Part shown: piece by piece, positions 5,180 through 64,000 of the stretch
How positions within the stretch are numbered: position 1 is the stretch's first letter
Layout: each line of letters begins with the position of its first letter
NCBI GenBank assembly: GCA_002269645.1
Contig: NIVC01002097.1
Location: 1 to 64,000 of the forward strand
Direction: 5' to 3'
Origin: Macrostomum lignano
Taxonomy: Eukaryota
DNA: 64,000 bases
Notes under the pieces: generated by a model
Seen by the model: the letters and a program-made list of their open reading frames with translations, nothing else
Told to the model about the DNA's origin: nothing
The model's database searches: none
Program-made: the position numbers and the translations under genes

Positions 5180-7527
5180 GTGAATGCCGGATAGCTGGGG
5201 GAGTACCCACCACCGGGAAGGAAAAGAAAAGAAAACCGGGGCAACTACAGGTAAAGACCGAAAAGTTGATCCGAAACACACAAACACACTCACACACACA
5301 CAAACACAGACAAAACCACACACTTGCGGCGTCGAAGAAAACAAATTGAAAAACGGGTGGCTCCACATAATTCCATTTAGGCAGTCCTAACGGCTTCACT
5401 CGGCAAAGCACACTGACTCAAACTGCGGCTACCACTACCAGTTGTCTATGGCACATCCTGACAGGGAAAAATTGGCTATTCAGAGAGACTTGACCTTCAT
5501 TTTGCGGCCATGCTAGGGAACCCAAATGCCGACCGTAAACGGACTTACGGCACCTGTACAAATTCTCCCCTAGGGTTGCGCGCCGGACCCCATTTCCTTA
5601 AGAAAGCTACTACGAAGAAGCGTTGGCGCCTGGACCCAAAAACCCAAGTGGCGGGAGCAATCCCCATGGAGGTCCTCCCACTTTACTGCCCTTGCACAGC
5701 CGGAAAACCGTCGGAGTCCAGTGGGGCTTCCACCTCAGGACTACCAATCTTGTACACGCAGCTTCACAAAAGGCGGGAATCCAGCTCCCCTACGTCTAGC
5801 AGAATCCACAAAAACCAAGACCTCCCCCTTCTGTTCAGAGCGAAGGCGCGCAGCGGGAGTCCAGACTAAACTGTCCCCGAAGTTTTCAGGTTAGGCGGAT
5901 TACAAGCCTGAAACTCTCGCCCGCTTTCCTAGGATAAACAGACCTAAGTGAGTATCTTCCTGAAATGCTTGCCCCTCCGATACTCCACCTTTGCTGCAGC
6001 TCGAAATAGCATACTTGGGACCTTTATCTGATGGCGGAGAAAGTCCTACAGTTGTCAGCCTCTCCACTTTACTGTACTTGAACGCCCGGTTCTACCAGGA
6101 GACAGCGGTACCTCCATCTAGGTTATTCCAAGTTGCCAGAGACGTCAACCCGTCTTATTGACCTTGCGGGGCACTGGGGTGGCACTCTATGTACCGGGGC
6201 TTTACATTAGGGGACTGCATGCAACCCTGCGTCTAAGCGCTTAGTGGGCTGCAGTGGCCAGAGGGGAAAAGAGTTGCGCAATAGCGCCTTCCTGGGCCAG
6301 GCTGACAAGTCGGGCAGGAGCGCCGTTCTACCGGGTCGGGCTGATTGGCACACCCACCTCCCCTATCAGACTGACAGCAGGGGGAGGAATTACTAAAGGA
6401 GGAGAATGCAGCAGGAAACATTACGAGATCACTGGGGGCCACCAGACTTCCAGTACACCATTCCAATACTCACTGAACTCCACTATCAATAGGATACTAT
6501 GGGATCTACTATTTCCAGCCACTGCACCAGCCCAAATGCAACCAAAGCAGTTACTACCGGGTCTGCAATACAGTGGGGAGAGTCAGCAGACACGTTGGGA
6601 TCGAATCCCAGCCATGAAGGCACCAGGGGTTACCGCAGAATTCAGGTCCGGGCTGATCGCAGGTATTCCATAGGAGGTGACACTTTTTTTAGCCCGAGAT
6701 TTTTGAGTCACACTGATACCCTACAGAGATACAATCACACCGCTATTCCCATTCCTGCGAGACTTTGGTATCCCCAATGTTTCCAAGGCCATGACTACTG
6801 CTTCCCTTACTATGCATATATAGCGAGTTCCCCATAGCCCTTGATAGCTGTTCATTCTAATGGACAAACAAAACACGCTCCGGTCTCTACGCATTTCTAG
6901 GATTAACTGAGCGATCAGGGAGAGCGACTGTTACACTCCCCGAGTAAAAGAAAGAGGTAGGACAAAGGAAAGAAATGCTTCGCTTCCAGCTTCCCTGTGC
7001 TTGCGTGATGAGGCTTCCGTACCTGGCTGGCTGTCCACCTCAACACTCACACAGTTCTGCTGTAGGCTAGGCGAGAGAAAGAAAGGGAGGGGAAATAAAG
7101 CATATTACCATGAAATAGAAAGTGAGTCCGGAAAATTCACTTTCGCAGTTCTTCACACACTCCGTTACCAGGTAGCTATTCTGATTGTAATCAAATCCGC
7201 TCGTCTACCACTTCACACTTTCTAGCGCTGAAACTGATCGGCTAAATTAATTTTAAATTGAATCAGGGGCTTTTGGCGAATGAATGAATTTGGAAATTTC
7301 GAATGAATTGAACGAATTCGCAGCCCGAAAAATTTGAAAAGTTACATTAATATTTTTGGATTTTGTTGCCTCACGCCATGGGAGAAGAGAATGACGATTG
7401 GCGATTTTTACGATTGGTAGATTTAGACATGGCACTCTTTGCGCTTCGGCCACCATTCTGAGGGATGCCACAGGTGCGCTTGTCACATCTAAACCACCAG
7501 TCCGAAACTCAGCGCTGTTTGCACCAG

Positions 7528-39784: not shown

Positions 39785-40305
39785 CCATAGTAGCCAAAGT
39801 GTACATGTTCATAGTAGCCATAGTGTACATTTTCATAGTAGCTAAAGTGTATGTTCATAGTAGCCATAGTGTACATGTTCATAGTAGCCATGGTGTACAT
39901 TTTCATAGTAGCCATAGTGTACATGTTCATAGTAGCCATGGTGTACATGTTCATAGTAGCCATAGTGTACATTTTCATAGTAGCTAAAGTGTATGTTCAT
40001 AGTAGCCATAGTGTACATGTTCATAGTAGCCATGGTGTACATTTTCATAGTAGCCATAGTGTACATGTTCATAGTAGCCATGGTGTACATGTTCATAGTA
40101 GCCATGGTGTACATGTTCATAGTAGCCATGGTGTACATGTTCATAGTAGCCATGGTGTACATGTTCATAGTAGCCATGGTGTACATGTTCATAGTAGCCA
40201 TGGTGTACATGTTCATAGTAGCCATGGTGTACATGTTCATAGTAGCCATGGTGTACATGTTCATAGTAGCCATGGTGTACATGTTCATAGTAGCCATGGT
40301 GTACA
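39785..40305. repeat. Minisatellite, 24-bp unit CATAGTAGCCATGGTGTACATGTT, ~21 copies
   Basis: Direct reading. Confidence 0.95.
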
Positions 40306-40439
40306 GAGTACTCAGCTTTATTGCTGAACCACATGGAATTTTGATCGCAAATAAACGCCTAACAACAACAACAAAATACACCTCGCGCTGGCCACGAGTG
40401 GCCACAGAGTGGGGAGGTTTCAGGACACACGCCTTTGGG

Positions 40440-41170
40440 TCGCACTTCTCTCGGGCAGCACACGCCGAACGCAGAGCGCAGAATCGCAGAGTGCGCGGCG
40501 TCCAGCTGCTTTTCCGGGGCATCCGTCGGTGCCCAGGTCTCAGCGTTGTAGAGCAGAACAGTCTCGACGACTGCCCGAAACAGCTGTGCCCTGGTCCCGT
40601 CATCCAGAGCCTCAGATCACAGCACTGGGTGCACTGAGCGTAAGGCGGCCCAAGCCAGCCCGCGTCTTCTTCTCATGTCGCTGGCGATGTGCGGCACGAG
40701 TCCGCAGAGGTACACAAAATGCTGGCAGCGTGGAAGTGGGGTCTCATTTCCCGCAGCATCTCGGTAGGTATAGGTCCAGCGGCATAGTGAGTGCTTCAGC
40801 GTGAGGCCGACCCTTGTTGCCGCTTTCGTCAAGCCATCCAGAAGCTGTTGGGCGCCTTCGACTGTTGAAGACATCAACGAAAGGTCGTCCGCGTACGTGC
40901 TCGTAGCCGAGCACACAGAGACGCTTCTCCGGAGGCTGACTCATGCGGCGTCTAAGCATGAAGCCATTGCCGGTCCTCAGTACCCAGTCCAGTACCAGCA
41001 CAAATAGAAAAGGCGCCAGCGTGTCAACTTGAAGCAGGCCCGAAGACGTGCCAAACTCGTCTGACAAAACCGTCTGGCGTGACTACCGCAGCGGTGGTGT
41101 CCTGTTACGCTCGCACATCGACGCCATACGGCGGAAATCAACTGCTGCGGTACGTTATACGCTAGAAGCA
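40440..41170 (-). pseudogene. Decayed non-LTR retrotransposon reverse transcriptase (RTE-like)
   Basis: Fragments across frames: LLAYNVPQQLISAV; GLLQVDTLAPFLFVLVLDWVLR (RT motif GVLQGDTLAP); YADDL; FVYL; LFRAVVETVLLYNAETW. Confidence 0.85.
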
Positions 41171-45766: not shown

Positions 45767-46562
45767 CTGCGGGAGGAGCGCAGTTGGATTCAGCCAGATT
45801 TGAACGCAACGCACAGAACAATAGTCCAATAGAAAACTGCCAGTTTAGAGCAGGTAAACTGCTTGTTTAAAAGTTCAGCACTTTATACTCTTGCTTAACG
45901 ACATCCAAATTTATCGCGGGACATTTATTTCTAGGAAAATTGAAGGCTTAAGCTTATCCGAAAAGTGACACGACTAAGACATGGTTTCGTATTCTGTTAC
46001 ATTGGTTTCTTGAGTATACAGAATGAACCCCAGATCGAAAATTTTATGCTCGCAGTATCTAGCTGGGCCAGACATGTACACTCTATTTTGTCTATGGCAA
46101 AAGCCCATCTGCAGGCCGATGCTATTGCTGAGCAATCCAGCTTTGTTTGATGTCAAAAATGAAATTTCTGTTTGTCTGCTTCTGGGGTGATATTTCCTTC
46201 TGAGGGGGCAGACTGTTCTTAGTTAACCTGCTGAGGAAAAAGAGCTCTAGAGAAGAGGTCAGAAAACTCCGGCCCGCGAAGCCTCTCTATCCGGCCCTCG
46301 GGTCCATTGAAACTTCACAATAGCAATCCAGACCGCTTAATGTTTGTCTCTTCTCTCCTCTCTCCCCTATCTCCTCTCCCCCCTCTCCCCTCTTGTTTTT
46401 TATTTCGTCTATTCCCTCCTCTTTCCTCTCTCATCTGGCCCGTAGCCATGAGCTGGATTCTTCATCGGGCCCTTGAGGTAAAAAAAAGTTAGCCGACCCC
46501 TGCTCTAGATAAAGAAAGGAGAGCTGACTAATAGCGGATGTTTATTTATACTTGACGCTTAC

Positions 46563-46898
46563 CTTCAGGCCAAGGTCGCAGAAAAAGCACTTCACATGGT
46601 CCTCTTCCATGAGATAGAAGAAGCCGCTCTCAACCATGTCTTCTTTAGTCTGGCTCTTGCCCAAGTAGTCCCAGTTCCCAATCACGAAGGAGTCCATGCG
46701 AGCTTTCCTGGTCACAAAGCGCAGGGTGCTGGGGCTGGATGTCAGGTACACCACGGCTGTCAGGGCTTCGTACACATCCAGCAGCCTTGTGGAGTCAGCC
46801 AAGGGTCGCATCCTATCGGCCAGTTTAGTAGATATCTCAGTAGCCGAGTCCTTGAGGATCTGGCGCAGACTCAGATCTAAGCTAATGTCGCCACTCAT
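46563..46898 (-). CDS. IAP BIR-domain exon (5' boundary uncertain)
   Basis: ARMDSF..W...EDMVESGFFY...DHVKCFFCDLGLK|gtaagc; spliced spacing C-x2-C-x16-H-x6-C is the exact BIR zinc signature. Confidence 0.85.
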
Positions 46899-47987
46899 TG
46901 CATGCACAGTTTGAGATGCTGCACTGTTATGGCAAACTTGAATTGGTCTGCAAAGTTGGAGGCCAATGCTTGCACAGCTTGGGCTTTTGTATTTTGGCAT
47001 TCCAGATCCCATTAAATTTAAGTTCAATATTGTTTGTAGTTTTATTTTTTTAAATATATGTATAAGTTTATATTTATTGGGATTATGGGAAATTCAATCA
47101 ATACTTCTATTACTATTACTATTAATTAAAATTCAAGTATTATTCACAGGTGTGCTGGCTATTAATGCTGTTTTTAATCCATAGGAAAACTGCCATGCAG
47201 AAATATCCATTTATAGATAATGATGACTTGAATGATAAGCTAAAATTCTATATTTGCATAGAGATCTAAGCAGTATTAGTGCAATACCTAAGGTTTAAGC
47301 ATCCCAAAAGTCCTTTTAGTAATTGTAACAAATAACTAGAATTTAAAGAATACTATAGTCTTTGGAAATAACATCCTTTGGCTATAATCATATATAGCTA
47401 GCATACTATTTGAATTTTTTACTCTGTCAATAGTGCTGGAATCATACAAATATTAGAGAACTTGGATGATTATGCCAAAAAGCTCATCTATATAATAGTA
47501 GTAGTGATAGTCTCACTTTTTTTACAAATTTGTTACATAACATATATTATAATTAGCTATTTATTTATATATATATGCTAGGCCTAATCTAACTAGGTCT
47601 AGCATATTTGAATTGTTCATTTCTACATGTTTTATAGGAATTATAGGCCCTTAGGCCCTGTATTAGGTGCTTAGCCTAGGTAAGCCCTAGGCCCTAGTGT
47701 ATAGTTTTATAGGCCCTAATTAGGCCTTAAAGTAGATTATAGATTTTTATATATAGGAAATAGAAACAGTGCAAAAATGCTATTGCCATTGCCACTATGT
47801 CATAGACTGTCTTTCAAAAAATTATTCTGGGATACATTGTGCAATATGTCTATGATTATGGCTTCTTGATAGTCAACTATTGCATTGGGTATAGGGCTAT
47901 AGGGTTACTATTACTAATACTAATAGATACCTACTATGCAATAGGCAAAACAGGCAATGTTTGCATATTAAATAGGCCTATATTTAT

Positions 47988-49138: not shown

Positions 49139-50871
49139 TCACTTGGCGACTACATACTTGGCCACAGCACTTAGCAATTGAGCTGCCGTTTTGGTGCCTG
49201 CCTGGTACTCGGACCAATAACGCATCAGCTTGGCCTCCTTGGTGCGCTGGGCAAGCCTCTGGTAGCGGCTAAGCTGCTCCTGAGACACCAGCTTAGCGTG
49301 AAGAGTGGCTACCCTCGCTTCATCGTAAAGGAGCGAGGCAAGCTTGTAGAAGCCCAGGTTGCCACTCCGTGCCCTTTGGTTGAGGCGATGATGGTAGCCT
49401 TCAGGCCCATTGTTCGTTCTGATGTTCCTGCGGAAGATGCTGATCTCGTCCAGCTGCCAGACTGTGCTGTTGAGCCATGTGTTAGCAACGTAATCGCACA
49501 GCTCTTGCAGCTGTTGGTTCTGGATCGTCTGCTGCAGCTCAGTGAATGCAGCATGCATACAATTGCCTGGCAGAAACGGCAGTGCCATCAATTTGTGGCA
49601 GAAGGCCCGTACAGTCTCGTCGTTCGCGTAGGCTGGCTGCAGGCCCATTGACTGGATGTGTCGCCAAATTGCCTGGGAATAGTGAAAACTGCACCCATGC
49701 AGTTTCACACCTGCCAGAAAGACAGACTTAGCAGCTCTCCACATTCCAGCTTCGTAATCGAGCACGATGCTTGTCAGTCGGCACTCGGAAGCATATCCTT
49801 GAGAGCCCGCAGCGTACGTCGGTAGTCTCGCTTGCTCTTTCCGGACATCAGAATGTAGACCAGCGGTATCTGTTTGACTGACTCATTCTTGCGCACATTG
49901 CCGTGGAAGATGTAGAGCTGTAGAAAGGGCTCCTTCACGACGAAGAAGGTTCCGTCGCCGAACCACTCCTTGCAACGTCCCAGCAGCTGCAGTTGACGTT
50001 GGCTTGCGAAAATGAAGTGGCGCCTGCCATTCTCTTCGATGTAGACATCTCTTTGAAGGAAGTCATCCGGCAGTGCTTCTTCTTGAACTTGAAATTCCAG
50101 ATCTCTTGGTTCCTGTGGGCGTTGTGCTGCTCGTGCTCGATTTGCAGCTTTTGCCAGCTGGTCCACTGTTGGCAACTGAGGCAGACCTCTTAAGCTGCCT
50201 TCATTCTGCAGCAGAAGTTGTTCGGCGATTTCAGCGGCGGGCCTGAAGAGCTCCTGCCGAGCTTGATCGCAGGCTTCCCGAACAATCAGTCGCCGTATCG
50301 ATGGTTGCCCGACTTGGCGACATGTGTGCTCGTTCTTGCCGCTGATAAATGCGCCACTTGACTCGATAGCTGAAGCTGTGCATTTGGTGTGTGCGTTTCG
50401 GATTGTGCATCTCCAGTACGTTCTGTCTCCTCGGCTGAATTGTCGACTGTAGCTGAAGCCGTCAGAGCGGATCAAAATGTCCTTCTCCTTCTCAGATGCA
50501 CGTGGGATTAGGGTAAAGACGATAGGCTCGACCTGTTGTGGTATGTGCTGTGGTGGAGCATCCTCTTCCATAGAGCTCTCCATCGGCTCGTCTTGGTGCT
50601 GGTGGTGGTGCTGTTGATGCTGTTGCTGCTGCTGTGGATGCTGAGGCTGCTGCTGGTGCTGTTGATGCTGGTGCTGGTGCTGTTGATGCTGATGCTGCTG
50701 TTGGCATGCTTCACATGACCAATTAAAGTCTGTTCCTTGAAACTCTCGGTATTGCTGCAGGGAGATTCCAGTGTTACACAAACGATGATGCCATCGATTG
50801 CAAACGTCACACTGCAGAGCTTGCTGCCTGGCTCTTACAGCTGACTGACAGCGTATGCAATTATCGTCCAT
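49139..50871 (-). CDS. MULE transposase with N-terminal PHD finger, poly-Q/H linker, FLYWCH zinc finger and DDE core; split by one frameshift near 49775
   Basis: PHD CIRC..CDVC..H..C..CEAC; FLYWCH FSY..YWRC..C..H; WFGDGTF, LDYE, GCSFHY, RTNNGPEGYH. The alternative frame across the junction reads LTSIVLDYEAGMW. Confidence 0.9.
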
Positions 50872-53334: not shown

Positions 53335-53601
53335 AGTAGTAGGCAAAACGACGAGTCTAGCCGGTCAGCACTTTTTAAACAACCGTTTTAAGGGTCTAGA
53401 GGGGGGACACGAGGGGAAATTAAAAAAACACATCTAAACACCCTCCAACACAAAAACACATCTAAACACCCCCTAATAACAAAAATCAATAAAAATCATC
53501 CCCAACACTTCTTATCATCCCCCTCGTGTCCCCCTCTTAAGACCTTACAAACGGCCATTATAAATAGGGTCTGATCTGTACTCGTCGTTTTGCCTACTAC
53601 T
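53335..53601. repeat. Terminal foldback: perfect 22-bp inverted repeat with AGTAGT ends plus imperfect inner arms
   Basis: AGTAGTAGGCAAAACGACGAGT (53335-53356) / ACTCGTCGTTTTGCCTACTACT (53580-53601); inner GAGGGGGGACACGAGGGG / CCCCTCGTGTCCCCCTC. Confidence 0.85.
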
Positions 53602-53660
53602 ACATTCTATAACCCCTCGCACGCGCCGCAGGCGCGAAGGGTCTTTTTCTGTTACTAAAA

Positions 53661-53975
53661 ATGACCCGAGTTTACACCTTTTCTGTTAGTGATACTTTTG
53701 AGACTGTTGCTAAAAATGCAGAGATAATAAAACAACATATTTTGAATGGAATAATTGATGAAGTTTATTTAAAATATGACGACAAGCACGACCTAAAACT
53801 TTATCCATTAGAGTTAGATGAGATGTATAATTTAGAACAAGAGGGTGAGTTAATATTTCAACTTGGAGATTATTTAAATTCGGATGATTGGGAGGTTAGA
53901 TCAACAGATTCCGAAACAACAAATAGCTCATATGAAACTAGTGATTCTGAGAATGAAATTGAAATTTTTATGTAA
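53661..53975 (+). CDS. Polinton hypothetical acidic protein (104 aa)
   Basis: TAAAAATG start context shared with other element genes. Confidence 0.65.
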   Translation: MTRVYTFSVSDTFETVAKNAEIIKQHILNGIIDEVYLKYDDKHDLKLYPLELDEMYNLEQEGELIFQLGDYLNSDDWEVRSTDSETTNSSYETSDSENEIEIFM

Positions 53976-53990
53976 AAAAATATTTAAAAA

Positions 53991-54215
53991 ATGAATTTTT
54001 ATTCTATAACAGAAACGACGTTTATTATGAAAAATATATATAAAAAAATGAAGGTAAACTACTCCTATATCGGAAATGTACCGATTAATGAACTTAATGA
54101 AAATTTAAGTCTTGTTACAGTTGAACAAATGTCAATAATAATATTAGTAACAATAATAGTAATAATATTGTTTTTGTTTGTTATAAAAAATTTACTACCC
54201 TGTTGCCTTAAGTAA
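53991..54215 (+). CDS. Polinton small single-pass membrane protein (74 aa)
   Basis: Hydrophobic IIILVTIIVIILFLFVI followed by KNLLPCCLK; AAAAATG context. Confidence 0.6.
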   Translation: MNFYSITETTFIMKNIYKKMKVNYSYIGNVPINELNENLSLVTVEQMSIIILVTIIVIILFLFVIKNLLPCCLK

Positions 54216-54225
54216 TTGTTCGAAC

Positions 54226-55377
54226 TTAGTTCGCAGATATTATCTGGTTCTCATAAAAAGAACCCAATATTTCTTCCCCATCCTTATCAGCAATTATATA
54301 GGTTGTAGGAGTTGTATTTAAAACTTTACTGATAGTAAATTTCTCACTTATCTTCCAATATCCTTTTCTTCCCTTTTCAAACTTATCTTTCCATTTATAG
54401 ATATAAACAGAATCACCAACCTTAAAACCTTTAGTTTTCTTTTTTTCAAATTCTCCAAAAGTAACTTTAACTTTTTCAGGATTGTTATAAGCTTGTTGAG
54501 GAGTCATCTTTATAGCCGAATGATATGAATTGTTATAATCTTTCACGACGTCTGGTAATATTTTTACCCACTTTTGATTTCCATTAAGACTAAACTGAAA
54601 CCACAATTTCCTACCTAAAGTTCGATTAAATCTTTCTATTAATGCGTTTTTACTTTCGCCATAAATAGAATAAATTTTATTAATATACTCCCCATTCGCG
54701 TCCTTTTTCCTTTCTTGTCCTTTTTCAAAATGATACAATTTATATATATGAGGATTGTAAAATTCTTTTCCTTCATCAACACACAACCTTTCACTTTTTT
54801 CTCCAAGACTTCTAAAAGCACCAGCAACCTCCTCTCCTTTTTTGGATTTTAAAGGAACTGCCCACGCATATCGAGTAAAACCATCTAATATGGTTAAGAT
54901 ATATTTATATCCTTTATCGATTGGCATTGACATTAAATCAGCATACCAAATTTCATTCTTTTTAAAGTTCATGATTTTTCTATAAAATTTCGGTTTTCGG
55001 TATTCTTTGTGAAGAATCTTTGCCTCATCAGAACTTAACCCACCACCACTTAATAGCAAACACTCAACACAATTATTTCCATGTTGATTGTAATTAATTC
55101 CCAAACCAAATTTAACTTTAGACTGCAAAATCTTTTTAACCATCCACCTAGTTAATCTTTGGCTTACCGATAATCCTTGCAAATTATCTAATCCTTGAAT
55201 CATTTTTCTATCGGCTTCATGTTTTAATCTTAATGCTTCCTCAGGAGAATTCTTATCAGCATCTCTGTATGCTAAGTCATGATAATATGCTAACCAATCA
55301 ATACCGTTAATGGGAATTGAATCAGCTTTTGGAGTGTCATCAGGATTTAACCGGAGATCGAGTCGAGTCAACCCGGC
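54226..55377 (-). CDS. PLA2-like (parvovirus VP1-type) domain fused to a retroviral-like (rve) integrase; 3' exon after the group I intron
   Basis: PINGIDWLAYYHDLAY (PLA2 HD motif), SKVKFGLG; integrase IWYADL / LTILDGFTRY / CVDEGKEF / IERFNRTL. Confidence 0.9.
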   Translation of the reverse strand, partial: AGLTRLDLRLNPDDTPKADSIPINGIDWLAYYHDLAYRDADKNSPEEALRLKHEADRKMIQGLDNLQGLSVSQRLTRWMVKKILQSKVKFGLGINYNQHGNNCVECLLLSGGGLSSDEAKILHKEYRKPKFYRKIMNFKKNEIWYADLMSMPIDKGYKYILTILDGFTRYAWAVPLKSKKGEEVAGAFRSLGEKSERLCVDEGKEFYNPHIYKLYHFEKGQERKKDANGEYINKIYSIYGESKNALIERFNRTLGRKLWFQFSLNGNQKWVKILPDVVKDYNNSYHSAIKMTPQQAYNNPEKVKVTFGEFEKKKTKGFKVGDSVYIYKWKDKFEKGRKGYWKISEKFTISKVLNTTPTTYIIADKDGEEILGSFYENQIISAN

Positions 55378-55702
55378 CTTTATACCTTTGTTTTCACAAA
55401 GGAGTAGACTGTGTCTTAAGCTATCATAAGGATTGACTAAGTCCTTCAAGCCCACCAGCGTACAGTCGTTGCATCTCAACCATACTCAAGTCATACGAGG
55501 TTAGGTTTTCGATTCACTCTTGCCCATATATTTATCTTCAAGCTTGTTACCGTTGGGAAGAGGAGTTACCTCTGTTCCTTTGTAATCTTTCGAAAACAAA
55601 GTGGTACTTGAAGCTTTAGGGGATTGAGTGAGCGGCTGGTGTTGCCACTAATAGTGACTAGCAGTAGCTTTGCATCTACCACTCGGGCACAGCTCGAGCT
55701 CC
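55378..55702 (-). ncRNA. Group I self-splicing intron (325 nt, IC1-like with P5abc)
   Basis: Manual fold: P1 CGGGU/GCCCG with U.G at the 5' splice site; P2 with GCAA loop; P3 CACCAGC/GCUGGUG; P4 UCACUC/GAGUGA; P5a CUUCAAG/CUUGAAG; P7 A(C)GACUGU/ACAGUCU; J8/7 UAAGAC; P9 CCUUUGU-GAAA-ACAAAGG; terminal G. Removal restores the frame. The exact 3' splice site is less certain. Confidence 0.85.
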
Positions 55703-55831
55703 ACCCGTGAAATTATGCGATGGAATGTGTAACTCACCTGTATACCTTCCAGTAGTAAAGATTGGTGGTAAGCTTGTTAATCCTTTTTGAACATCTAATA
55801 ATCCTCCTTCAAACACTAATTGATTGCTCAT
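55703..55831 (-). CDS. 5' exon of the PLA2-integrase gene (MSNQ...GELHIPSHNFTG)
   Basis: TAAAATG context at 55831; GELHIPSHNFTG matches the PLA2 N-terminal Ca-loop motif (GELHLPGxNxxGPG type); in frame with the 3' exon after splicing. Confidence 0.8.
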
Positions 55832-56380
55832 TTTAATAGCCTTAAAAATACAAGTTAACACTAATTGTTTTGCAAATTCTTCGATAGTTGGTTGTTTAAC
55901 TTTTTTATAGCGATTATCTACGCTAGTTAGGTATCTTTTATTTGTCCAATGTTCAGACTTTTTCATCTGATCGGCATCTTTGTAACTAAATGAAGAAGCG
56001 GGGATTAAATGATCAATATGTAACATTCCAGTATAATCTTTTGATACATAATAATTTCTTGTGAAATTTAACCAATCAAAAAATAATTCTTTTGTGCAAC
56101 CAAGATATGAGATATAGTCCTTGTCCTTAAAATTTTTCAACGCCCAATTTATTCTATTTCTAATTAGAGTAATATTTTTGTAATTTTCATCGGTGTGATA
56201 TTTATTTTTTCTATATTCTTTCCATTTATCTTTATTGTTTTTCATCCACATTGTAGCCGAAGCAGTATGACACAAGCGACAATCATTTCTAAATTTTTTT
56301 GAATCGTTTCTCCAATAAAAAAATTCTTTAGTTATAGGCTTTTCTTGTTTACACTTAGCACAAATCTTTGTTTCATCCAT
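55832..56380 (-). CDS. HNH (His-Me finger) endonuclease with N-terminal zinc ribbon, in frame with the PLA2 5' exon
   Basis: CAKC...CRLC; YLGCTKELF; LHIDHLIPASSF...HWTN...DN, a giant-virus-type HNH pattern; no stop before MSNQ. Confidence 0.8.
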
Positions 56381-56396
56381 TTTATAAAAAATAAAT

Positions 56397-57068
56397 TTAA
56401 TTAATTCCTGTATGTCCAGCAGCTTTCGCGGCAGCTAAAACAAGTTTTCTAGGAGTTTTAAAACCTTCTCCAACAGCCGCTTTGTTATTTATAGAATTAA
56501 CAATCCTTTTATACAAGCTGGTATTTTTAACACCTCCACCTCCTAACTCATCGTAAAAAAATTTAGCACTTACTAATTCATCCCTAGTATATAAATCGGG
56601 GTTAAATTTTACCCTAGGGTTCGTAATAATATTAAATGCTCCACCCAATTCTCTATATAGTTCATTCCGATTTTTATCAACTCCACCAATTCGATAATTA
56701 TTATTACCTAAATCTGTCGCAGCAATACTAGCTGGTACTCTTGGAAATTGTTGCCGATCAACTCTTTCTTCAACCCTAATCTCTGCAACTCTCAATTGTG
56801 CTTGATTAACACCATAAGTAGGCGGATCATCCAAAATTTCATCCTCTTTTGGCTCCGTATTCTTAGCAATTTTTTCCAGAATGTCTTTATCTGTTTTTTC
56901 TAGTTCACTAATTTTCCCAGTAATAGGATTAACAAAAGGAGCAGCAAATCTATCACCAGCTAATTCTATTCCTAACTTTCTTTTTTGCAAATTTCTAACA
57001 AAATCGGAATATCTTTGCTTCTCTTTATAAATCGCTAACTCTCCATCAACGTCCATAAATTGACTCAT
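56397..57068 (-). CDS. Polinton hypothetical protein (223 aa)
   Basis: Full ORF with AAAAAATG context, divergent from the MCP gene; no assignable motif. Confidence 0.7.
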   Translation of the reverse strand: MSQFMDVDGELAIYKEKQRYSDFVRNLQKRKLGIELAGDRFAAPFVNPITGKISELEKTDKDILEKIAKNTEPKEDEILDDPPTYGVNQAQLRVAEIRVEERVDRQQFPRVPASIAATDLGNNNYRIGGVDKNRNELYRELGGAFNIITNPRVKFNPDLYTRDELVSAKFFYDELGGGGVKNTSLYKRIVNSINNKAAVGEGFKTPRKLVLAAAKAAGHTGIN

Positions 57069-57102
57069 TTTTTAATATAAAAAACTTTTTTAACTTAAAA
57101 AA

Positions 57103-58575
57103 ATGGCTGAAACAAAAACTATTTGGAGTGATAAATTTCATTTCAAAAAGCACCGTCAGTATATTAATGAGGTCAGGGCAAGAGATTTAAATTATACCCT
57201 ACCAACAAGTGATAATACAAATAACTTTACTAGCGGAACGGTAACTTTTGACATCGGCGCAACCAACACCATATTAGATATGAAAAATGCATTCTTCCGC
57301 GTTAGATGGTTGTATACTAGAAATGATGGAACTGCTCTTGCAGCCGGCGATATCGCAGATCGTTCTGGAATAATAATAGAAAATGATTGGTTTTATAAAT
57401 GTTTTTCTCAAGCTCAACTAACTGTTAATGGAGCCGAGGTTGAGACATCATCAAACCCCGCAGAGATTAATGGAGTTTTGAAACATTTAAATTATACTTA
57501 TTTATCAAAACAAGTTGGTGATAATGTTGGGTGGATGGCTGATAAGGGTAATGGACAAGCAGTAGTTTTCCCTAATGTACAAAACGCAGCTGGTGCAGAT
57601 ACTGCAGCTCTTATAGCTTATCTTAATACCAATATAGTTCCAGTTGTAACCACTATGACTAACACAAAAGATATTAACACCGGGTTTATAGATCGTCAGA
57701 ATAAATTCCCAGTAGCGGTTTTAACCACAGCAAACGCATATGAGCAAGACTTTTCAATCTTTCCACTATTTGGGTTCTTCTCACCAAATCGGGTATGGAA
57801 AGGATTAAAATTTGGGGTACAGTTGCAAATATCTGGTGGATATCAGCCTAGGATACTATATGGAACCTCGATTTCAACCGATATAGCAGTTCGCATAGCA
57901 TCAATACAATTAGTCGTGCCAACTATTGAGGTAACAGCCCCACTTTTAAAACACATCGATAATCAGTTAACGCATGATCAGGAAATATTTTATTTGAATC
58001 GTCGACATTTTATGCGAACCATTAATAACAATCAGGACCCATTCCAGTGGCAAATACTGACATCAAAACGTCGGGTGAGATATATTTTTGTTTGGTTTAA
58101 GATAACAAACAGAAGGAGTAAAAGAGCAAATGGGGATTTATATTGGCTTCAATCAGGAGATGTAGCAGCACAAGCAGCCACAGCAACAGACAATGAGGTT
58201 GCAGCTATTAACGAGTTTAATGTTCAGAATATCCGCCTGCAGGTTGATGACCAATACTATCCGGTTAAAGATCCTCTTAATCTAAATATAGCAAATAATA
58301 ATGTTAATGATTTTCTAAAATATTATCAAGATTATGTCAAAAATGAAGCGTATGCCATCCCTCAGTACATACCCACAGAGTTTCTAAACATTCATCCAGT
58401 GGTTGTTTATGATCTAACGGCACAGAAAGAAAACGTAGCCAATATTGGACTTAATTATATGTTAGAGATTAATAAAACCGGTAATCAGGCAATAGACGCA
58501 CACGTATTGTTTCTAGAGGAATATATGTCAATTGCTAAAGCTGATGGCACGATTGTTCGGGACGCGCCATTGTAA
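57103..58575 (+). CDS. Major capsid protein (double jelly-roll, Polinton PY-type), 490 aa
   Basis: Size and beta-rich blocks: FSQAQLTVNGAEVE, IFPLFGFF, RYIFVWF, NIRLQVDDQYYP, HPVVVYDLTAQ; adjacent to the ATPase and penton. Confidence 0.88.
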   Translation: MAETKTIWSDKFHFKKHRQYINEVRARDLNYTLPTSDNTNNFTSGTVTFDIGATNTILDMKNAFFRVRWLYTRNDGTALAAGDIADRSGIIIENDWFYKCFSQAQLTVNGAEVETSSNPAEINGVLKHLNYTYLSKQVGDNVGWMADKGNGQAVVFPNVQNAAGADTAALIAYLNTNIVPVVTTMTNTKDINTGFIDRQNKFPVAVLTTANAYEQDFSIFPLFGFFSPNRVWKGLKFGVQLQISGGYQPRILYGTSISTDIAVRIASIQLVVPTIEVTAPLLKHIDNQLTHDQEIFYLNRRHFMRTINNNQDPFQWQILTSKRRVRYIFVWFKITNRRSKRANGDLYWLQSGDVAAQAATATDNEVAAINEFNVQNIRLQVDDQYYPVKDPLNLNIANNNVNDFLKYYQDYVKNEAYAIPQYIPTEFLNIHPVVVYDLTAQKENVANIGLNYMLEINKTGNQAIDAHVLFLEEYMSIAKADGTIVRDAPL

Positions 58576-58576
58576 A

Positions 58577-58669
58577 ATTTTATCTATAAGTTTTATCTTT
58601 AAATTTTATCTTTAAGTTTTATCTTTAAGTTTTATCTTAAGTTTTATCTTTAAAATTTTATCTTTAAAA
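58577..58669 (+). promoter_or_regulatory. Intergenic array of ~7 TTTTATC-core repeats upstream of the ATPase; putative viral promoter
   Basis: (A/G)TTTTATCTTTAA-type units in tandem; a single TTTTATC also lies before the penton ATG (~59436). Confidence 0.45.
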
Positions 58670-59434
58670 ATGGTAAAAGCAAAACACAATATTATATTTC
58701 CAAATGATCCTTTTCTTTGTTTAGTAATTGGTGGGTCGGGTAAAGGAAAAACACACTTTGTTTATGACCTGTTTACAACTGATGGAATGCTAGACTATAA
58801 TAATTTATTAATTTACACTAACAAACCTAGAATAAAATATTATGAATTTCTTAAACATGGATTAAAAAACAAATTAAAAAAAGATGTGTTGTTTAGAATG
58901 TTAAGAGCATATGAGCAATATGAGGATGATGATGAACCACGATTTACACTCGATGACATTGAGGATTTATGTAAAACAACGGCACAAATATCAGAAAACA
59001 CCACCGAGAGATCCCCAACTGTTAGAGTATCAACCCGATTAGCCTATGATCAAATTCCAAAAAACGATAAAACACTAATTATTTTTGACGATTGTATTAA
59101 CGATGGCGATCAAGAATTGCAAAAGGAAATTTTTGTTAGTGGTAGAGGTGATGGAATTGGAGCTTTTTATCTAACACAGTCCTTTAGAGAATTAGAATCG
59201 ATTATAAAAAAGAATGCTAGTTGTTGTGTAATGTTTGATTTAGATAACTATGATTTACAAAATATACACGCTAGATTTAATCCTGGGTTGGATACAAAAC
59301 CATTTAAAAGTATGTGTAAAAAAATTTGGGATGATAATCATTATAGACACATATATATCAACCCTAGGTTACCCAGAAAAGATCGAATCTTACCAAATTT
59401 GATAAAAGAAGATAATGAGGAAGAAGAGACTTAG
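58670..59434 (+). CDS. A32/FtsK-like genome-packaging ATPase
   Basis: Walker A GGSGKGKT, Walker B LIIFDD, GRGDGIGAFYLTQS arginine-finger/sensor region. Confidence 0.93.
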   Translation: MVKAKHNIIFPNDPFLCLVIGGSGKGKTHFVYDLFTTDGMLDYNNLLIYTNKPRIKYYEFLKHGLKNKLKKDVLFRMLRAYEQYEDDDEPRFTLDDIEDLCKTTAQISENTTERSPTVRVSTRLAYDQIPKNDKTLIIFDDCINDGDQELQKEIFVSGRGDGIGAFYLTQSFRELESIIKKNASCCVMFDLDNYDLQNIHARFNPGLDTKPFKSMCKKIWDDNHYRHIYINPRLPRKDRILPNLIKEDNEEEET

Positions 59435-59451
59435 TTTTATCCACTATAAAA

Positions 59452-60237
59452 ATGACTACAAATTTAAATACTATAAAACAATTGGTAGATCGAACTAATT
59501 CAAAATTTAGTACAACCTTACAGTTTATAATGACAACCAGCGAGCAACGGATTCAATTGCGCGATCCGTTACAACTTGATCAAAGCCTAAGTTATCAAAT
59601 AGGTTTGATATTATTTTCTGTTTTTAACATGCCTCAATTAATTAATGCAACAAATAATCAATTTAGATATTCTAAAGATTCAGGAGCCAATTGGACAACA
59701 TTTAGTGTTAGCCCGGGTGCGTATTCCTATACCGATTTGAATGCTTATATAGAAGGAGAATTAACAGCTAACGGCGATTGGGTAGCAGGTGCGATTGTTA
59801 TAGGTGTTGATTTACCATCTGGCAGATTCACACTATCATTACAATCCGGATATCAGGTTGATTTCACAATTGCAAATTCACTCCGAACCATACTAGGATT
59901 TAATTCCCGAATAGTTACCACATCAAGCACCGGCGATACAGTTGGAAATATTGAGGGTGGAGTCAATACAATTAATATAACAACCGACATATCAAACGGC
60001 GGTTATATAACAGACGATAACGGAGTTTTGGTTCAACGTGGAATTATTTATTCAATCCCATTTCTTGCTGTTCCAATTGGAGAGAAAATGATTGTTTCAC
60101 CCCAAACCCCAATATATTATCCTTTAAATCAATATAACGTTCAATCAATTTATATTAGGATTGTAGATGAAACCGATAGGTTAATAAGTTTTGGTGGGCA
60201 GTCAATAACAGTGATTTTACGTATAAAACAGGTTTAA
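59452..60237 (+). CDS. Minor capsid (penton) protein, 261 aa
   Basis: Polinton PX-like pattern: PLQLD..YQIGL, INATNNQFRY, SPGAYSYTDLN, SLRTILGF, IYYPL..IYIRIVDETDRLISFGGQ. Confidence 0.85.
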   Translation: MTTNLNTIKQLVDRTNSKFSTTLQFIMTTSEQRIQLRDPLQLDQSLSYQIGLILFSVFNMPQLINATNNQFRYSKDSGANWTTFSVSPGAYSYTDLNAYIEGELTANGDWVAGAIVIGVDLPSGRFTLSLQSGYQVDFTIANSLRTILGFNSRIVTTSSTGDTVGNIEGGVNTINITTDISNGGYITDDNGVLVQRGIIYSIPFLAVPIGEKMIVSPQTPIYYPLNQYNVQSIYIRIVDETDRLISFGGQSITVILRIKQV

Positions 60238-60280
60238 CCGAACCTTTGGTTCGAGGACTTCGTCCGTTTCCCATAGTAAA

Positions 60281-60485
60281 AATGGGTAACAACAATGTTT
60301 TCGTGCAAAGCACGCGAACCGAAGGTGCGATAAAAAAACAATCAAATAAAGTTCAAAATGCAAAGGATAATTATGAAATCGAATTAACAAAATTGAAACA
60401 ATTACAGGCAGAAAAAATCCGAAAGGAACTGTTAAAATCCAAACCTACGAAACTAACCAAAACCAAGAGTTTTTCAGGAACATAA
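60281..60485 (+). CDS. Small basic hypothetical protein (MGNNNV...)
   Basis: TAAAAATG at 60281; Lys-rich, coiled-coil-like. Confidence 0.55.
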
Positions 60486-60486
60486 A

Positions 60487-60926
60487 ATGACTATGACGTG
60501 GAGCGATTTTAAACAAAGATATGGAACAGACACAACAAGCAATATCGAATTAACAAATTGGGCGCGGCAATTAAAAATAAAACCATTCAGATGTGTTATG
60601 CGGGATGAGATAAAAGACTTACCAATATATGGATGTTACATTGTTAATATTGAAACTACAAAAGAAAATGGTGTTCATTGGTCAGCAGTTTATTCAAAAC
60701 CTAAACTTGTTTATTTTTTTGATTCATATGCACTTCCTCCGTTACAGGAAATAAAAGACAAATTTAATCATACTAAAAATCGTTTATGTGGAGATCACCA
60801 CAACAGTTTCAAACATTTGATAAAAGTTATTGCGGACAAGCGGCGTTGTATTTTTTATATAGAATTAACAACTCTAAGGAAAGACCCGAAGACTTTAAAT
60901 ATATCATACAAAGTATGCGAACCTAA
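60487..60926 (+). CDS. Adenain-like cysteine protease, frameshifted near 60795
   Basis: GVHWSAVY (His) and FFDSY (Asp) in the annotated frame; the catalytic half RSPQQFQTFDKSYCGQAALYFL...MRT* lies in a different frame ending at 60926. Confidence 0.85.
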
Positions 60927-60993
60927 GGTTCGATCGGACGGAGTCCGCGTGCCATAGGCACGATTTTAGATTCTATAAAATAGACAGTAAAAA

Positions 60994-63045
60994 ATGTTAT
61001 TTTCTGGAACACCCTCATGGAACGGAACATCAAGTACTGGTGGTGGTACAAGTGGTGGAATAAGTGTTACATTCGGAGATAATCGATATATTAATGAAGA
61101 TGAAGGTTATAAAAAAAGTGAAATTGATACTACGAGTAAACTAAATTTAAAAAGAAATGTTGCAGATTCCTATACCAAAACTCAAATAGATGATTCATTA
61201 AATTTAAAACGGAATGTTGCAGATTCCTATACCAAAACAGAGGTTGACACTGGGTTAAATTTAAAAAGAGATATAACTGATTCTTATTCTCGAACTCAAA
61301 TAGATGATTCATTAAATTTAAAACGCAATACTGCCGATTCTTATACCAAAACTGAAGTTGATAATTCATTAAATTTAAAAAGAGATATATCTGATTCCTA
61401 TACCAAAACCGAAGTTGATAATTCCCTAAATTTAAAAAGAGATATAGCTGATTCTTATACCAAAACCGAAGTTGATAATTCCCTAAATTTAAAAAGAGAT
61501 ATAGCTGATTCCTATACCAAAACCGAAGTTGATAATTCCCTAAATTTAAAAAGAGATATAGCTGATTCTTATACCAAAACGGAGGTTGATAATTTAGTTG
61601 GAGGTGGAGCCCCAAAACAAGATCGATTCCAAACGGTTGAAACCGGCCACATACCTACCATGGCAGATTGGAGTGGAAATGGTTTTGCAATAACCACAAG
61701 TAGTGAATTTAATACAACCGATTTTGCAAGTTGGAAAGCTTTTGATGGTGACGATTCAACAGATTGGGCAACAAGTAATACTCAAACCGATTATTGGATT
61801 CAAGTCCAATGTCCTTCCGCGATAATGTGTTATAAAATTGATTTACGTGGGAGACCGTCACCTTCAACCGAACACCCAGCATCGTGGCGATTTGAGGGCA
61901 GTAATGACAATACGAGTTGGGATGTTTTAATACCTGCGGATAGTTCTGTAGAAATAAATAACTCAACTCAAACAATTAATGTCACACAAAATTTTGATAA
62001 AACATATTCATATTTCAGATTGTTCTGTCTTACATCAACATCAGGTTCAACCAACCCAGGTCTGTCAACCTTTCAGATTTATAGACAGACGTTTACAATT
62101 CTTGATTTAAATTTAGGAGTAGTTAATCAATCAATTGATATGGGTGGTAATACAATTACTAATATCTCTACTATAAACAATAACAGTTCTGTTGTTACTA
62201 AAGGTTATGTTGATACGCGAGTAACCCAAACGGCAGATGGCCGAATGTCTTTTAACGATAAAATAAAATTGGATGGAATACCTGCAATCGATGCCGCTTT
62301 GTACGAACCCGTAATTTGCAATTGGACTGGATATCAAAACCCAACCACAGCCGGTGATATTTTTCCAACTGGAAGTTTTGTTGGAGATGCTTCTTATATT
62401 GATTATCAAAATGGAGCTAGAATTACTGATGAAGCATCTGGTCGGTCTGGAGCGTTACAATTTAATTTCACCCATTTTCGTAATATCTCCGCCTCCTTCT
62501 ATTTCCGAGTTGCGAATTCTACAGGAACAGGAGCTGATGCGGTTTGGTTTTATGCATATTGTCATGAACGACCAACAACCGAATTTGGATCCGGGTTAAC
62601 AACCAACGCCGGCTTGATAGTGTTTGCTAGTGAATGGCACGACCGAGTTGGAGTTCTTTGGAGCAATATAAAATCAGACGGTGCAACAGTTCGTAATGAT
62701 GTTCTTAATGACGCAGATCAAACTATAACCTATGCTAATATTGATAATGGTGATTGGCATCTTTTTGAAATTAATATTTTAAATCAAAGAATTTGGTATC
62801 AAATAAGCACATACAATGTTTCAGCTGAAACATATACGCTAATTGGGCAAAACTTTTTTACATATGATAGTGGCACTTGGGGAGAGTTAGATAAAACGGG
62901 AACTCTTATGGGTTTTGGTGCTCGAACCGGAGGGGCGGATGCTGCACATTTTATTCGTGGCGCTGCCGTTTGTGGTAGCACATCAGCCGGCTATGATTTT
63001 GCTGCGACCGCATATTTGGAACGGCCACAAACTCAGATAACCTAA
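60994..63045 (+). CDS. Fibre/spike-like protein: 19-aa tandem repeats, F5/8C discoidin domain, fibre motif, C-terminal L-type-lectin-like domain
   Basis: ~8-9 x SYTKTEVDNSLNLKRDIAD; WKAFDGDDSTDWAT..YWIQVQ..WRFEGSND (discoidin); IDMGGNTITNI..VVTKGYVD; GALQF..ADAVWF..WHLFEI..FGARTGG (ConA-like). Confidence 0.7.
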   Translation: MLFSGTPSWNGTSSTGGGTSGGISVTFGDNRYINEDEGYKKSEIDTTSKLNLKRNVADSYTKTQIDDSLNLKRNVADSYTKTEVDTGLNLKRDITDSYSRTQIDDSLNLKRNTADSYTKTEVDNSLNLKRDISDSYTKTEVDNSLNLKRDIADSYTKTEVDNSLNLKRDIADSYTKTEVDNSLNLKRDIADSYTKTEVDNLVGGGAPKQDRFQTVETGHIPTMADWSGNGFAITTSSEFNTTDFASWKAFDGDDSTDWATSNTQTDYWIQVQCPSAIMCYKIDLRGRPSPSTEHPASWRFEGSNDNTSWDVLIPADSSVEINNSTQTINVTQNFDKTYSYFRLFCLTSTSGSTNPGLSTFQIYRQTFTILDLNLGVVNQSIDMGGNTITNISTINNNSSVVTKGYVDTRVTQTADGRMSFNDKIKLDGIPAIDAALYEPVICNWTGYQNPTTAGDIFPTGSFVGDASYIDYQNGARITDEASGRSGALQFNFTHFRNISASFYFRVANSTGTGADAVWFYAYCHERPTTEFGSGLTTNAGLIVFASEWHDRVGVLWSNIKSDGATVRNDVLNDADQTITYANIDNGDWHLFEINILNQRIWYQISTYNVSAETYTLIGQNFFTYDSGTWGELDKTGTLMGFGARTGGADAAHFIRGAAVCGSTSAGYDFAATAYLERPQTQIT

Positions 63046-63125
63046 ATAACTTAAATAACTTAAATAACCTAAATCAGCTAATGCTGCGACCCTACGGGGC
63101 GATAACCTAAATATTTCTATATAAA

Positions 63126-63729
63126 ATGGCTTTTAGTAGAACTCCATCGATGAGACAAAATAACAATGTTATCATTCCTATTCCTAAACAAGAATCAAAT
63201 ATAAAAACTTTTAAATCTCATACCAAATATTTATTTAGCAATGTGAATGTTCAGGATAATAAGAAACTTCAAGAATTAATTAAATTATTAAAAAACCATA
63301 TTATCCTTCAAGAGTTTTGGAAAATTGGATTTAAATGGGAGAAAAAAGAAAGAATCACTCCGATACAATACCTATTGAGCTCGGGACAAATCCCCAAAGA
63401 GCCCTATTGCAGCCAAGGTCTGAACCGCGCCGGACGCCCCCCTTTCCCGCGCCAGACATCTACCCGTACCGCGCCAGGGCCAGTCCCCAGGATCAGTGAT
63501 TTGGTTCAATTTTCCCATGCCCCGCGCCACGCCACCGCGCGCCGCCGCCACACGACACGCCACCGCGCGCCGCCGCCACGCGCCGCGCCGCTGCCGCGCG
63601 CCGCGCCGCCGCCAGGCCAATCCGCGCCGGACGCCGTCCACGAAAATGGCCATTGGCTGCAATAGGGCCAAAGAGCGTGGGGAATTCATTTTAGTGCTAT
63701 TAAAAATAGACGAAAATGTCGGTATCTGA
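63126..63729 (+). pseudogene. Polinton ORF (109 aa when restored) interrupted by a MITE
   Basis: Removing 63402-63675 (element plus one TSD) gives 330 nt in frame: ...SSGQIPKE|RGEFILVLLKIDENVGI*. Confidence 0.8.
63402..63667. mobile_element. GC-rich MITE (266 bp), 15-bp TIRs, 8-bp TSD
   Basis: CCCTATTGCAGCCAA / TTGGCTGCAATAGGG; TSD CCAAAGAG at 63394-63401 and 63668-63675. Confidence 0.92.
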
Positions 63730-64000
63730 AGCAGATAAAAGGGAACGTGACCATTTTAATCAACGTAAGGGTCACATGTTAAGTAATGTTGATCGTATTA
63801 ACTATGATTATGATTTATATGCTAAAAAAGTAAGAAGGATTTCAAACCATATCAGAAATATGGATTTTTTCAATATTGGATTTGGAAGCTTATCAATGTT
63901 ATGTGTAATCGTTTTAGGTATTTTACAATCTGTTCCAACTCTTAATTTATCTCAATTATTTTTAGGTATTTCAATTGGTTCAATATCAGGATTTGAATTA
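63716..64000 (+). CDS. Partial membrane-protein ORF open to the window edge
   Basis: AAAATG at 63716; 95 codons without a stop; hydrophobic IGFGSLSMLCVIVLGILQSV and LFLGISIGSISG segments. Confidence 0.6.
   Translation, partial: MSVSEADKRERDHFNQRKGHMLSNVDRINYDYDLYAKKVRRISNHIRNMDFFNIGFGSLSMLCVIVLGILQSVPTLNLSQLFLGISIGSISGFEL

Follow-up and report, generated by a model that had tools for sequence, protein, structure and literature searches.

The HNH nuclease gene that runs without a stop into the intron-bearing PLA2-integrase gene of a Polinton-like element in Macrostomum lignano appears in this fused form through a one-base loss private to the assembled copy, and we put at roughly two in three the overall reading in which the fusion is private and the HNH is a free-standing rival of an Eco47II-like restriction nuclease, the likely partner of the intron, for one swappable gene slot. 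The stretch analysed (the window) comprises 64,000 nucleotides of contig NIVC01002097.1, and further copies were gathered from the 764-Mb genome. A sequence-only reading of the window had proposed that the HNH is the homing partner of the intron and is joined in frame to the exon. This observation was partly confirmed, in that the open 234-aa frame is there in the window but the fusion does not hold as a feature of the family. Seen directly are the copy census, the swapping of genes in the slot, a restriction-like gene inside the intron in a sister family, and the loss of GGNCC from the DNA and of Gly-Pro from the proteins. Judged by its sequences, the nuclease-intron system is real and unusual.

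Table 1. Features of the HNH/PLA2 locus and its host element in the window
Feature	Position	Strand	Remarks
Polinton-like host element, part in window	53335..64000	.	continues to G000:C2097:71361; GGNCC-depleted
PLA2-integrase 3' exon (PLA2 core, rve integrase)	54226..55377	-	open frame; Pfam rve E 4e-7; Phospholip_A2_4 weak
Group I-type intron, type A, ORF-less, atypical core	55378..55702	-	3' end 55378, 55377 or 55369
PLA2-integrase 5' exon, 43 codons from own ATG	55703..55831	-	matches ATG of intron-less L031
Candidate HNH target codons	55712..55720	-	10-18 nt upstream of intron site; P-S-x-N here, P-G-Y-S elsewhere
A run at HNH/PLA2 overlap	55831..55834	-	one base short of sister copies; joins both frames here
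Zinc-finger + HNH gene (Endo VII-type, D-H...N...N), 183 codons to PLA2 ATG	55832..56380	-	variable-slot occupant
Conserved 223-aa gene	56397..57068	-	upstream border of nuclease slot

The host of the HNH/PLA2 locus is an element of ~18 kb, and the features that mark Polinton or adintovirus-like elements (rve integrase, A32 ATPase, PLA2 and terminal inverted repeats) are all present (Table 1). The terminal repeat beginning AGTAGTAG starts at 53335 and recurs in a second locus, L152, at 7066-7361, where a 1309-aa ORF (L152:1600-5529), whose sole family match in Pfam and PDB searches is an internal Endonuclease_7, is probably the putative DNA polymerase of the element. Pfam and PHROG gave no clear family for a 490-aa element ORF and no match for the 223-aa border gene, which is 82-93% identical in 27 other loci among the 30 best DNA matches. 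A second one-base loss private to this copy is found near 60801, against all five of the five aligned copies, within a putative protease gene (60487-60957); we take it to be a protease, a label for which no family match was found. Host DNA to the left of the element holds a tandem repeat array and ORF motifs (39842-40637, 46542-47012 and 49139-50871), presumably a BIR-like motif and PHD/FLYWCH/MULE-like ORFs. One rearranged family-2 copy (L131) shows a PLA2 5' exon and the start of an intron, then unrelated DNA, and then a second, intron-less PLA2 gene. Palindromic inserts of ~30 nt, mostly frame-preserving, recur at the PLA2 start in L009, L016, L057, L065, L097 and L106 and inside the intron in L025, L130 and L143; these are possibly a small mobile element.

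The slot occupant of the window is a predicted HNH (beta-beta-alpha-Me) nuclease of the Endo VII type, and the earlier assignment to the HNH nucleases stands. Its D-H...N motif consists of D123, H124, N147 and N156, giving a catalytic D-H pair and a downstream Asn metal ligand, and the counterpart residues in Endo VII are D40, H41 and N62 in the available text of PMC6083498. D123, H124 and K159 were invariant among 100 relatives, while C7, C34, C37, N147 and N156 were nearly so (N147 and N156 in at least 90%), and a Cys4 finger is present. PHROG endonuclease VII matched residues 2-163 with E 7e-9; no Pfam or NCBIfam family was found for the protein itself, and PF01844 was matched by 2 of the 100 relatives (E 0.006). 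A full HMMER search returned 5603 public relatives. A word-indexed homologue search with the HNH gave no match, and PDB sequence searches with the ORF and its alignment gave nothing useful beyond the Hpy99I zinc finger (E 0.03). The predicted model reached a pLDDT of 96 and its fold similarities were weak: the top Foldseek rows were Cas9 HNH and BrxU domains (E at least 0.02), and fold comparison (VIA) gave a best Z of 5.3 for the Hpy99I zinc finger (rmsd 2.1, 41 aligned) and 5.1 for Cap5 (rmsd 4.5, 87 aligned). The genome holds 117 HNH matches, of which those in the 84 slot loci described below were read in context; the full motif is kept in 64 of these 84, and variants are combined mosaic-fashion in the N-terminal part, a common trait of mobile nucleases.

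To relate slot and intron, we compared 122 family-1 loci, made up of 30 best DNA matches, one pattern match and 94 protein matches minus three; left out of the counts were L034 and L090 (5' exon not found), L029 (the same place as L024) and the family-2 loci. The slot between the 223-aa gene and PLA2 is filled by an HNH gene in 84 loci, by a PD-(D/E)XK restriction-like gene in 36 and by an acidic ORF in two. The last of these, a third slot occupant of 153-155 aa (L016:1020-1481 and L041), matched nothing in Pfam or NCBIfam. Introns at the PLA2 site are of type A in 24 loci, of type B in 95 and missing from three, and type A versus type B was independent of the slot gene (Fisher p = 1.0). The proposed co-occurrence of HNH and intron did not survive this comparison, the two varying independently: each of the three intron-less copies (L031, L040 and L073) carries the HNH, and 38 of the 119 intron-bearing copies have another gene in the slot. 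The HNH as a dedicated intron partner is thus not supported, given its presence in every intron-less copy.

That the HNH instead serves the virus, in DNA packaging, replication or the nicking of host DNA, the slot being a recombination hot spot at which nothing is targeted, is improbable. The retention of the full motif in most copies and the abundance of public relatives, which marks a common viral family, would suit such a service, as would the packaging role proposed for an HNH beside the ATPase in one PLV in the accessible portion of PMC12220804. However, the gene is missing from 38 of 122 copies and was not found in the sister-family loci examined, and is therefore dispensable, and its N-terminal mosaic also speaks against this explanation. 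Less probable still is a role as second collaborative-homing partner, with the HNH cutting at intron-less junctions in the manner of F-CphI in cyanophage psbA. An Endo VII-type free-standing gene beside an ORF-less intron has the layout of F-CphI (in the part of PMC6083498 that is available), and the intron is present in 81 of the 84 HNH copies. Against this, the intron-less copies all carry the HNH, two of them at full length, and would cut themselves, all 36 copies with the restriction nuclease in the slot have the intron too, and none of the examined HNH genes lies inside an intron, as the other nuclease does.

This other nuclease is the one that fits the intron site. The restriction-like gene matches Pfam RE_Eco47II (PF09553) with 27.0 bits against a cut-off of 25.9, its free-standing form in L019 scoring 23.8 bits, below the cut-off, and its best fold match is EcoO109I (Z 9.7, rmsd 3.6, 157 aligned; Foldseek E 3e-4). 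EcoO109I recognises RGGNCCY. In L130 and in 17 of 20 further loci, making 18 sister-family loci, a group I intron at the same codon of PLA2 contains the restriction-like gene, and the remaining three of the 20 comprise two partial loci and one slot copy. The intron-internal sister-family gene is 57-66% identical to full-length slot forms. In a metagenome contig (L203) the gene is likewise inside the intron, and several public homologues carry tails resembling read-through into the same intron core. The gene was in none of three family-1 and none of four family-2 intron-less loci, which are small numbers; with only three intron-less family-1 copies its lack there has a chance of about 1 in 3 and is non-significant alone. 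Across the loci, the restriction-like gene is found inside the intron (18 loci and L203) or beside it (36 loci) and never with an intron-less allele. Homologues of Eco47II are described as GGNCC cutters in the text available from PMC10305163, and every intron-less junction reads GGNCC (at -3), from Gly-Pro codons. The intron thus interrupts the predicted site, with GGNCC assigned to this nuclease by its family only. L142 and L147 have a stop in the restriction-like gene and also a GGNCC just after the intron. No methylase was found among the scanned element ORFs, which are part of those listed. Taken together, these sequence comparisons make the Eco47II-like nuclease the likely partner of the intron. 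In its general form, the earlier view of a free-standing neighbour as promoter of the intron is supported, but the evidence favours the Eco47II-like nuclease, alternating with the HNH, as that neighbour.

Loss of the predicted site extends over the whole element. Family-1 element DNA has 2 GGNCC where 76 are expected (0.03) and family 2 has none where 41 are expected (0.00); these word counts are not independent because the copies are related, and each family amounts to about one observation. The element part of the window has 3 GGNCC against 14.5 expected. At the protein level, Gly-Pro is absent from 2626 aa of window element ORFs; four intron-bearing element sets have none in their long ORFs, and in two intron-less sets it occurs in the PLA2 loop only, with 3-6 expected per set in either case. 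Another cause of the GGNCC loss (a host nuclease, methylation or codon bias), with a coincidental match to the intron site, is very unlikely. Flanking DNA is also poor in GGNCC (104 seen against 178 expected, 0.58, the lowest of 16 words there), CCNGG and CTNAG are low too in family 1 (0.45 and 0.46), and viral-contig searches for PLA2 and integrase relatives gave no outside Polinton control for the word. However, the loss is near-total in two families, reaches the protein level, and matches both the described site of the nuclease family and the exact position of the intron. Distant relatives of the restriction-like nuclease (29-39% identity) occur in 31 viral-contig loci (L172-L202), many of them labelled giant viruses. 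Some of the 31 (L186, L189, L196 and L200-L202) are strongly GGNCC-poor and others are not, and giant-virus loci with 30-39% relatives have mixed GGNCC levels.

The earlier reading of the intron itself, as of group I type and located in the Ca-loop codons of PLA2, is supported. Type A, the type of the window, occurs at 24 places in the genome. Its P1 contains a U-G pair at 55703/55688, and the core comprises P3 (55641-35/55459-53), P4 (55631-26/55519-14) and P7 (55467-63/55411-07), with P6 and P9 also pairing; together with a G-binding pair and a terminal G these are the features expected of group I, and the fold z is -2.8. At E <= 1, neither the window nor L002 was matched by RF00028 (Rfam), which scored 62-85 bits for B- and C-type introns at the same site and for L203. 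Types A (in the window) and B (in L026-L028 and L030) share the insertion point and near-identical P2, P2.1 and P5, with a wholly different P3, P4, P6 and P7 core, as if the core had been swapped beneath common peripheral domains. A 15-base pattern of the type-A core matched 18 times in viral sequence, and the S element came after it in no case. The type-A intron of L024/L029 contains an 833-nt insert, probably a host repeat, with several GGNCC sites and no evident nuclease gene. Most type-B introns (64 of 95, e.g. L030 and L056) end in A instead of the canonical G with an unchanged G-binding pair; the mitochondrial ND5-717 intron of hexacorals also ends in A, according to the accessible text of PMC6545197.

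Three candidates for the type-A 3' end were considered, and their P10 energies (-9.8, -9.8 and -10.8 kcal/mol) do not separate them. The P9.0 pattern, CU/AG in 23 A copies and AG/CU in most B copies, favours 55377 as the final intron base, and exon 2 would then be out of frame. Ending one base earlier (55378|55377), as the sequence-only reading had it, keeps the frame and gives a G-x-G loop with one extra residue, and ending at 55369 keeps the frame and loses Pro-Gly. We regard 55378|55377 as the splice site at even odds; a frameshifted exon 2, either dead or recoded, is a weaker possibility, and 55369 is unlikely. Lower again we place a route in which the intron, after splicing at the homologous site, excises two more bases with the same guide; such a second excision is known for engineered ribozymes (available sections of PMC2532722), and, if true here, it would be a natural case of trans-excision-splicing, a reaction described until now as non-native. 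Placing the 5' splice site 6 nt deeper in the intron was rejected on inspection, since that site lacks a U-G pair and leaves a 2-nt loop. No spliced joint was found in contigs of runs X1, X2, X5 and X6 at the window or of X2, X5, X6 and X19 at the intron-less locus L031; these runs are only guessed to be RNA and may be DNA, and in depth profile the guessed-RNA runs track X19, which is unlabelled. A possible splicing branch, suggested by a contig that ends at the B-type 5' splice site, was set aside because X19 shows the same end.

The fused frame was then compared across copies. The 234-aa open frame is confirmed on the minus strand (56380-55676), and it consists of 183 codons of zinc finger and HNH, the ATG at 55831 (MSNQ) opening the 43-codon PLA2 5' exon, and a TAG 8 codons into the intron. 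The arithmetic of the 609-aa product proposed for spliced RNA (226 + 383) holds for 55378|55377, one of the three candidate 3' splice sites. The A run at the overlap, counted with the A of the PLA2 ATG, is four long here only, five in 102, six in 13 and a different junction in six of the 122 family-1 loci. In unfused copies the HNH frame stops on its own, mostly 106 nt before the intron; the check for a stop before MSNQ finds literally none, but a stop ~20 nt after the ATG in the other frame has the same effect, that of two overlapping genes. An open frame from HNH into PLA2 is not kept across copies: it occurs in four of 84 by four different lesions, the other three (L065, L097 and L106) being joined at different places, and this is the chance level, with 1.8-3.5 fusions expected from the breakage rate (20 of the 84 HNH genes are broken somewhere). 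Contigs of four public runs (X1, X2, X5 and X6) hold longer-run or otherwise unfused alleles at the window site, and these make up the whole listed depth in three runs (15.1/15.1, 38.5/38.5 and 102.5/102.6) and ~68 of 74-84 in the fourth. The intron-less copy L031 has a 424-aa PLA2-integrase (Pfam Phospholip_A2_4 and rve) that begins at an ATG matching the internal one, which indicates that separate initiation, raised earlier as an option, is the norm.

These comparisons of copies indicate that the in-frame fusion is a one-base loss private to this assembled copy, whether a mutation or an assembly error, and that the HNH usually stands as a gene of its own, which overlaps the start of PLA2. 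Neither the HNH-PLA2-integrase fusion nor splicing as a switch between products is upheld, the joining frame resting on that private loss. A fusion by design, in which splicing toggles between a 234-aa nuclease and a 609-aa protein, is hardly credible with 80 of 84 HNH copies unjoined, a different lesion behind each of a chance-level number of joins and unfused alleles in public contigs, for all that the frame is open here, three further copies are joined and HNH fusions exist in other Polinton-like elements, which, in the parts of PMC12220804 and 10.1101/2023.08.22.554363 at hand, concern polymerases and helicases.

The HNH as a selfish, free-standing rival of the Eco47II-like nuclease would fit the following scheme, in which every step of cleavage, splicing and homing is what we infer. 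The restriction-like enzyme would cut GGNCC, its predicted site, and the elements have shed that word except at the Gly-Pro codons of the PLA2 Ca-loop, which presumably could not be recoded. By splitting the remaining GGNCC, the intron would render intron-bearing genomes immune, and co-resident intron-less genomes would be cut and then converted or lost. A copy with the HNH would keep the protection of the intron without making the restriction-like enzyme, and the HNH would spread by nicking or cutting nearby slot rivals, possibly at a P-G-Y-S allele lying 10-18 nt ahead of the intron site. P-G-Y-S, which is what family 2 has, was found in 2 of the 64 motif-complete HNH copies, 4 of the 20 broken HNH copies and 14 of the 36 restriction-nuclease copies, a bias with p 6e-6 by copy and 2e-3 by haplotype among ~120 sites. 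In both flanks the P-G-Y-S sites show the strongest linkage, exceeding that of sites closer to the slot, and are non-significant after correction for ~120 sites. Two HNH copies, L040 and L073, carry P-G-Y-S, the latter without its first Cys pair. The proposal that the HNH cuts near the Ca-loop codons finds weak support in altered form, with a cut that would fall upstream of the junction whether or not the intron is present, and we hold cutting near the Ca-loop but away from the junction as a tentative reading only. More doubtful, though possible, is a fuller contest in which two unrelated selfish nucleases dispute ~20 bases of the PLA2 Ca-loop, with the intron as armour and the HNH cutting at the neighbouring P-G-Y-S codons, which would evict its rival from the slot and drive amino-acid escape variants. 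A methylase-free restriction enzyme acting at an unrecodable Gly-Pro GGNCC would in that case drive a ribozyme intron, and its free-standing state in one family and intron-internal state in the next would be two stages of becoming a mobile intron.

With the same restriction relative beside and inside an intron at one codon, the locus offers a testable case of a group I intron gaining a nuclease, in elements that have erased the predicted site at the DNA and protein level. If the scheme is true, a short-site restriction enzyme would join the nucleases able to drive introns, immunity would be gained through an intron instead of methylation, the HNH would be a cheat of the nuclease-intron system, and an animal nucleus would house functional group I introns as well as virus-like elements whose nucleases compete. 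A search found no published account of this arrangement of nuclease and intron, subscription journals and supplements lying outside its scope; in the accessible text of PMC11296320, collaborative homing is raised for other PLV genes.

Group I introns of ~300-380 nt recognised by RF00028 are also present in Polinton-like viruses of protists (PMC12220804), where they are reported only for Paulinella, Desmodesmus and Rhodomonas, interrupt a short unannotated gene and have no known endonuclease partner; unlike them, the type-A intron escapes RF00028. F-CphI and the ORF-less psbA intron of cyanophage S-PM2 resemble the present locus in that a free-standing nuclease stands beside an ORF-less group I intron, which there interrupts the target of the nuclease, and F-CphI shares the Endo VII-type D-H...N pattern with our HNH (both in the available text of PMC6083498). 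As far as that text allows the comparison, the HNH differs in being present in intron-less alleles too and in belonging to an integrated element in an animal-type genome, and the nuclease fitting the intron site here is related to type II restriction enzymes, has a predicted site of 5 bp and is also found inside the intron. This second slot occupant shares its PD-(D/E)XK motif, Pfam match and best fold with Eco47II (PF09553) and EcoO109I (PDB 1wtd/1wte), but it is a protein of ~160 aa in a eukaryotic virus-like element, is intron-borne in the sister family and apparently relies for protection on site loss and the intron. The likely best model for the HNH, by analogy, is a free-standing nuclease like MobE of phage T4, which in the accessible portion of PMC2790892 is an optional HNH gene between conserved genes, as here, that nicks the adjacent gene in rival alleles and carries with it a nearby intron whose junction it does not target. 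Compared with MobE as described there, the slot alternates with an unrelated nuclease, and nicking and its target are putative for the HNH.
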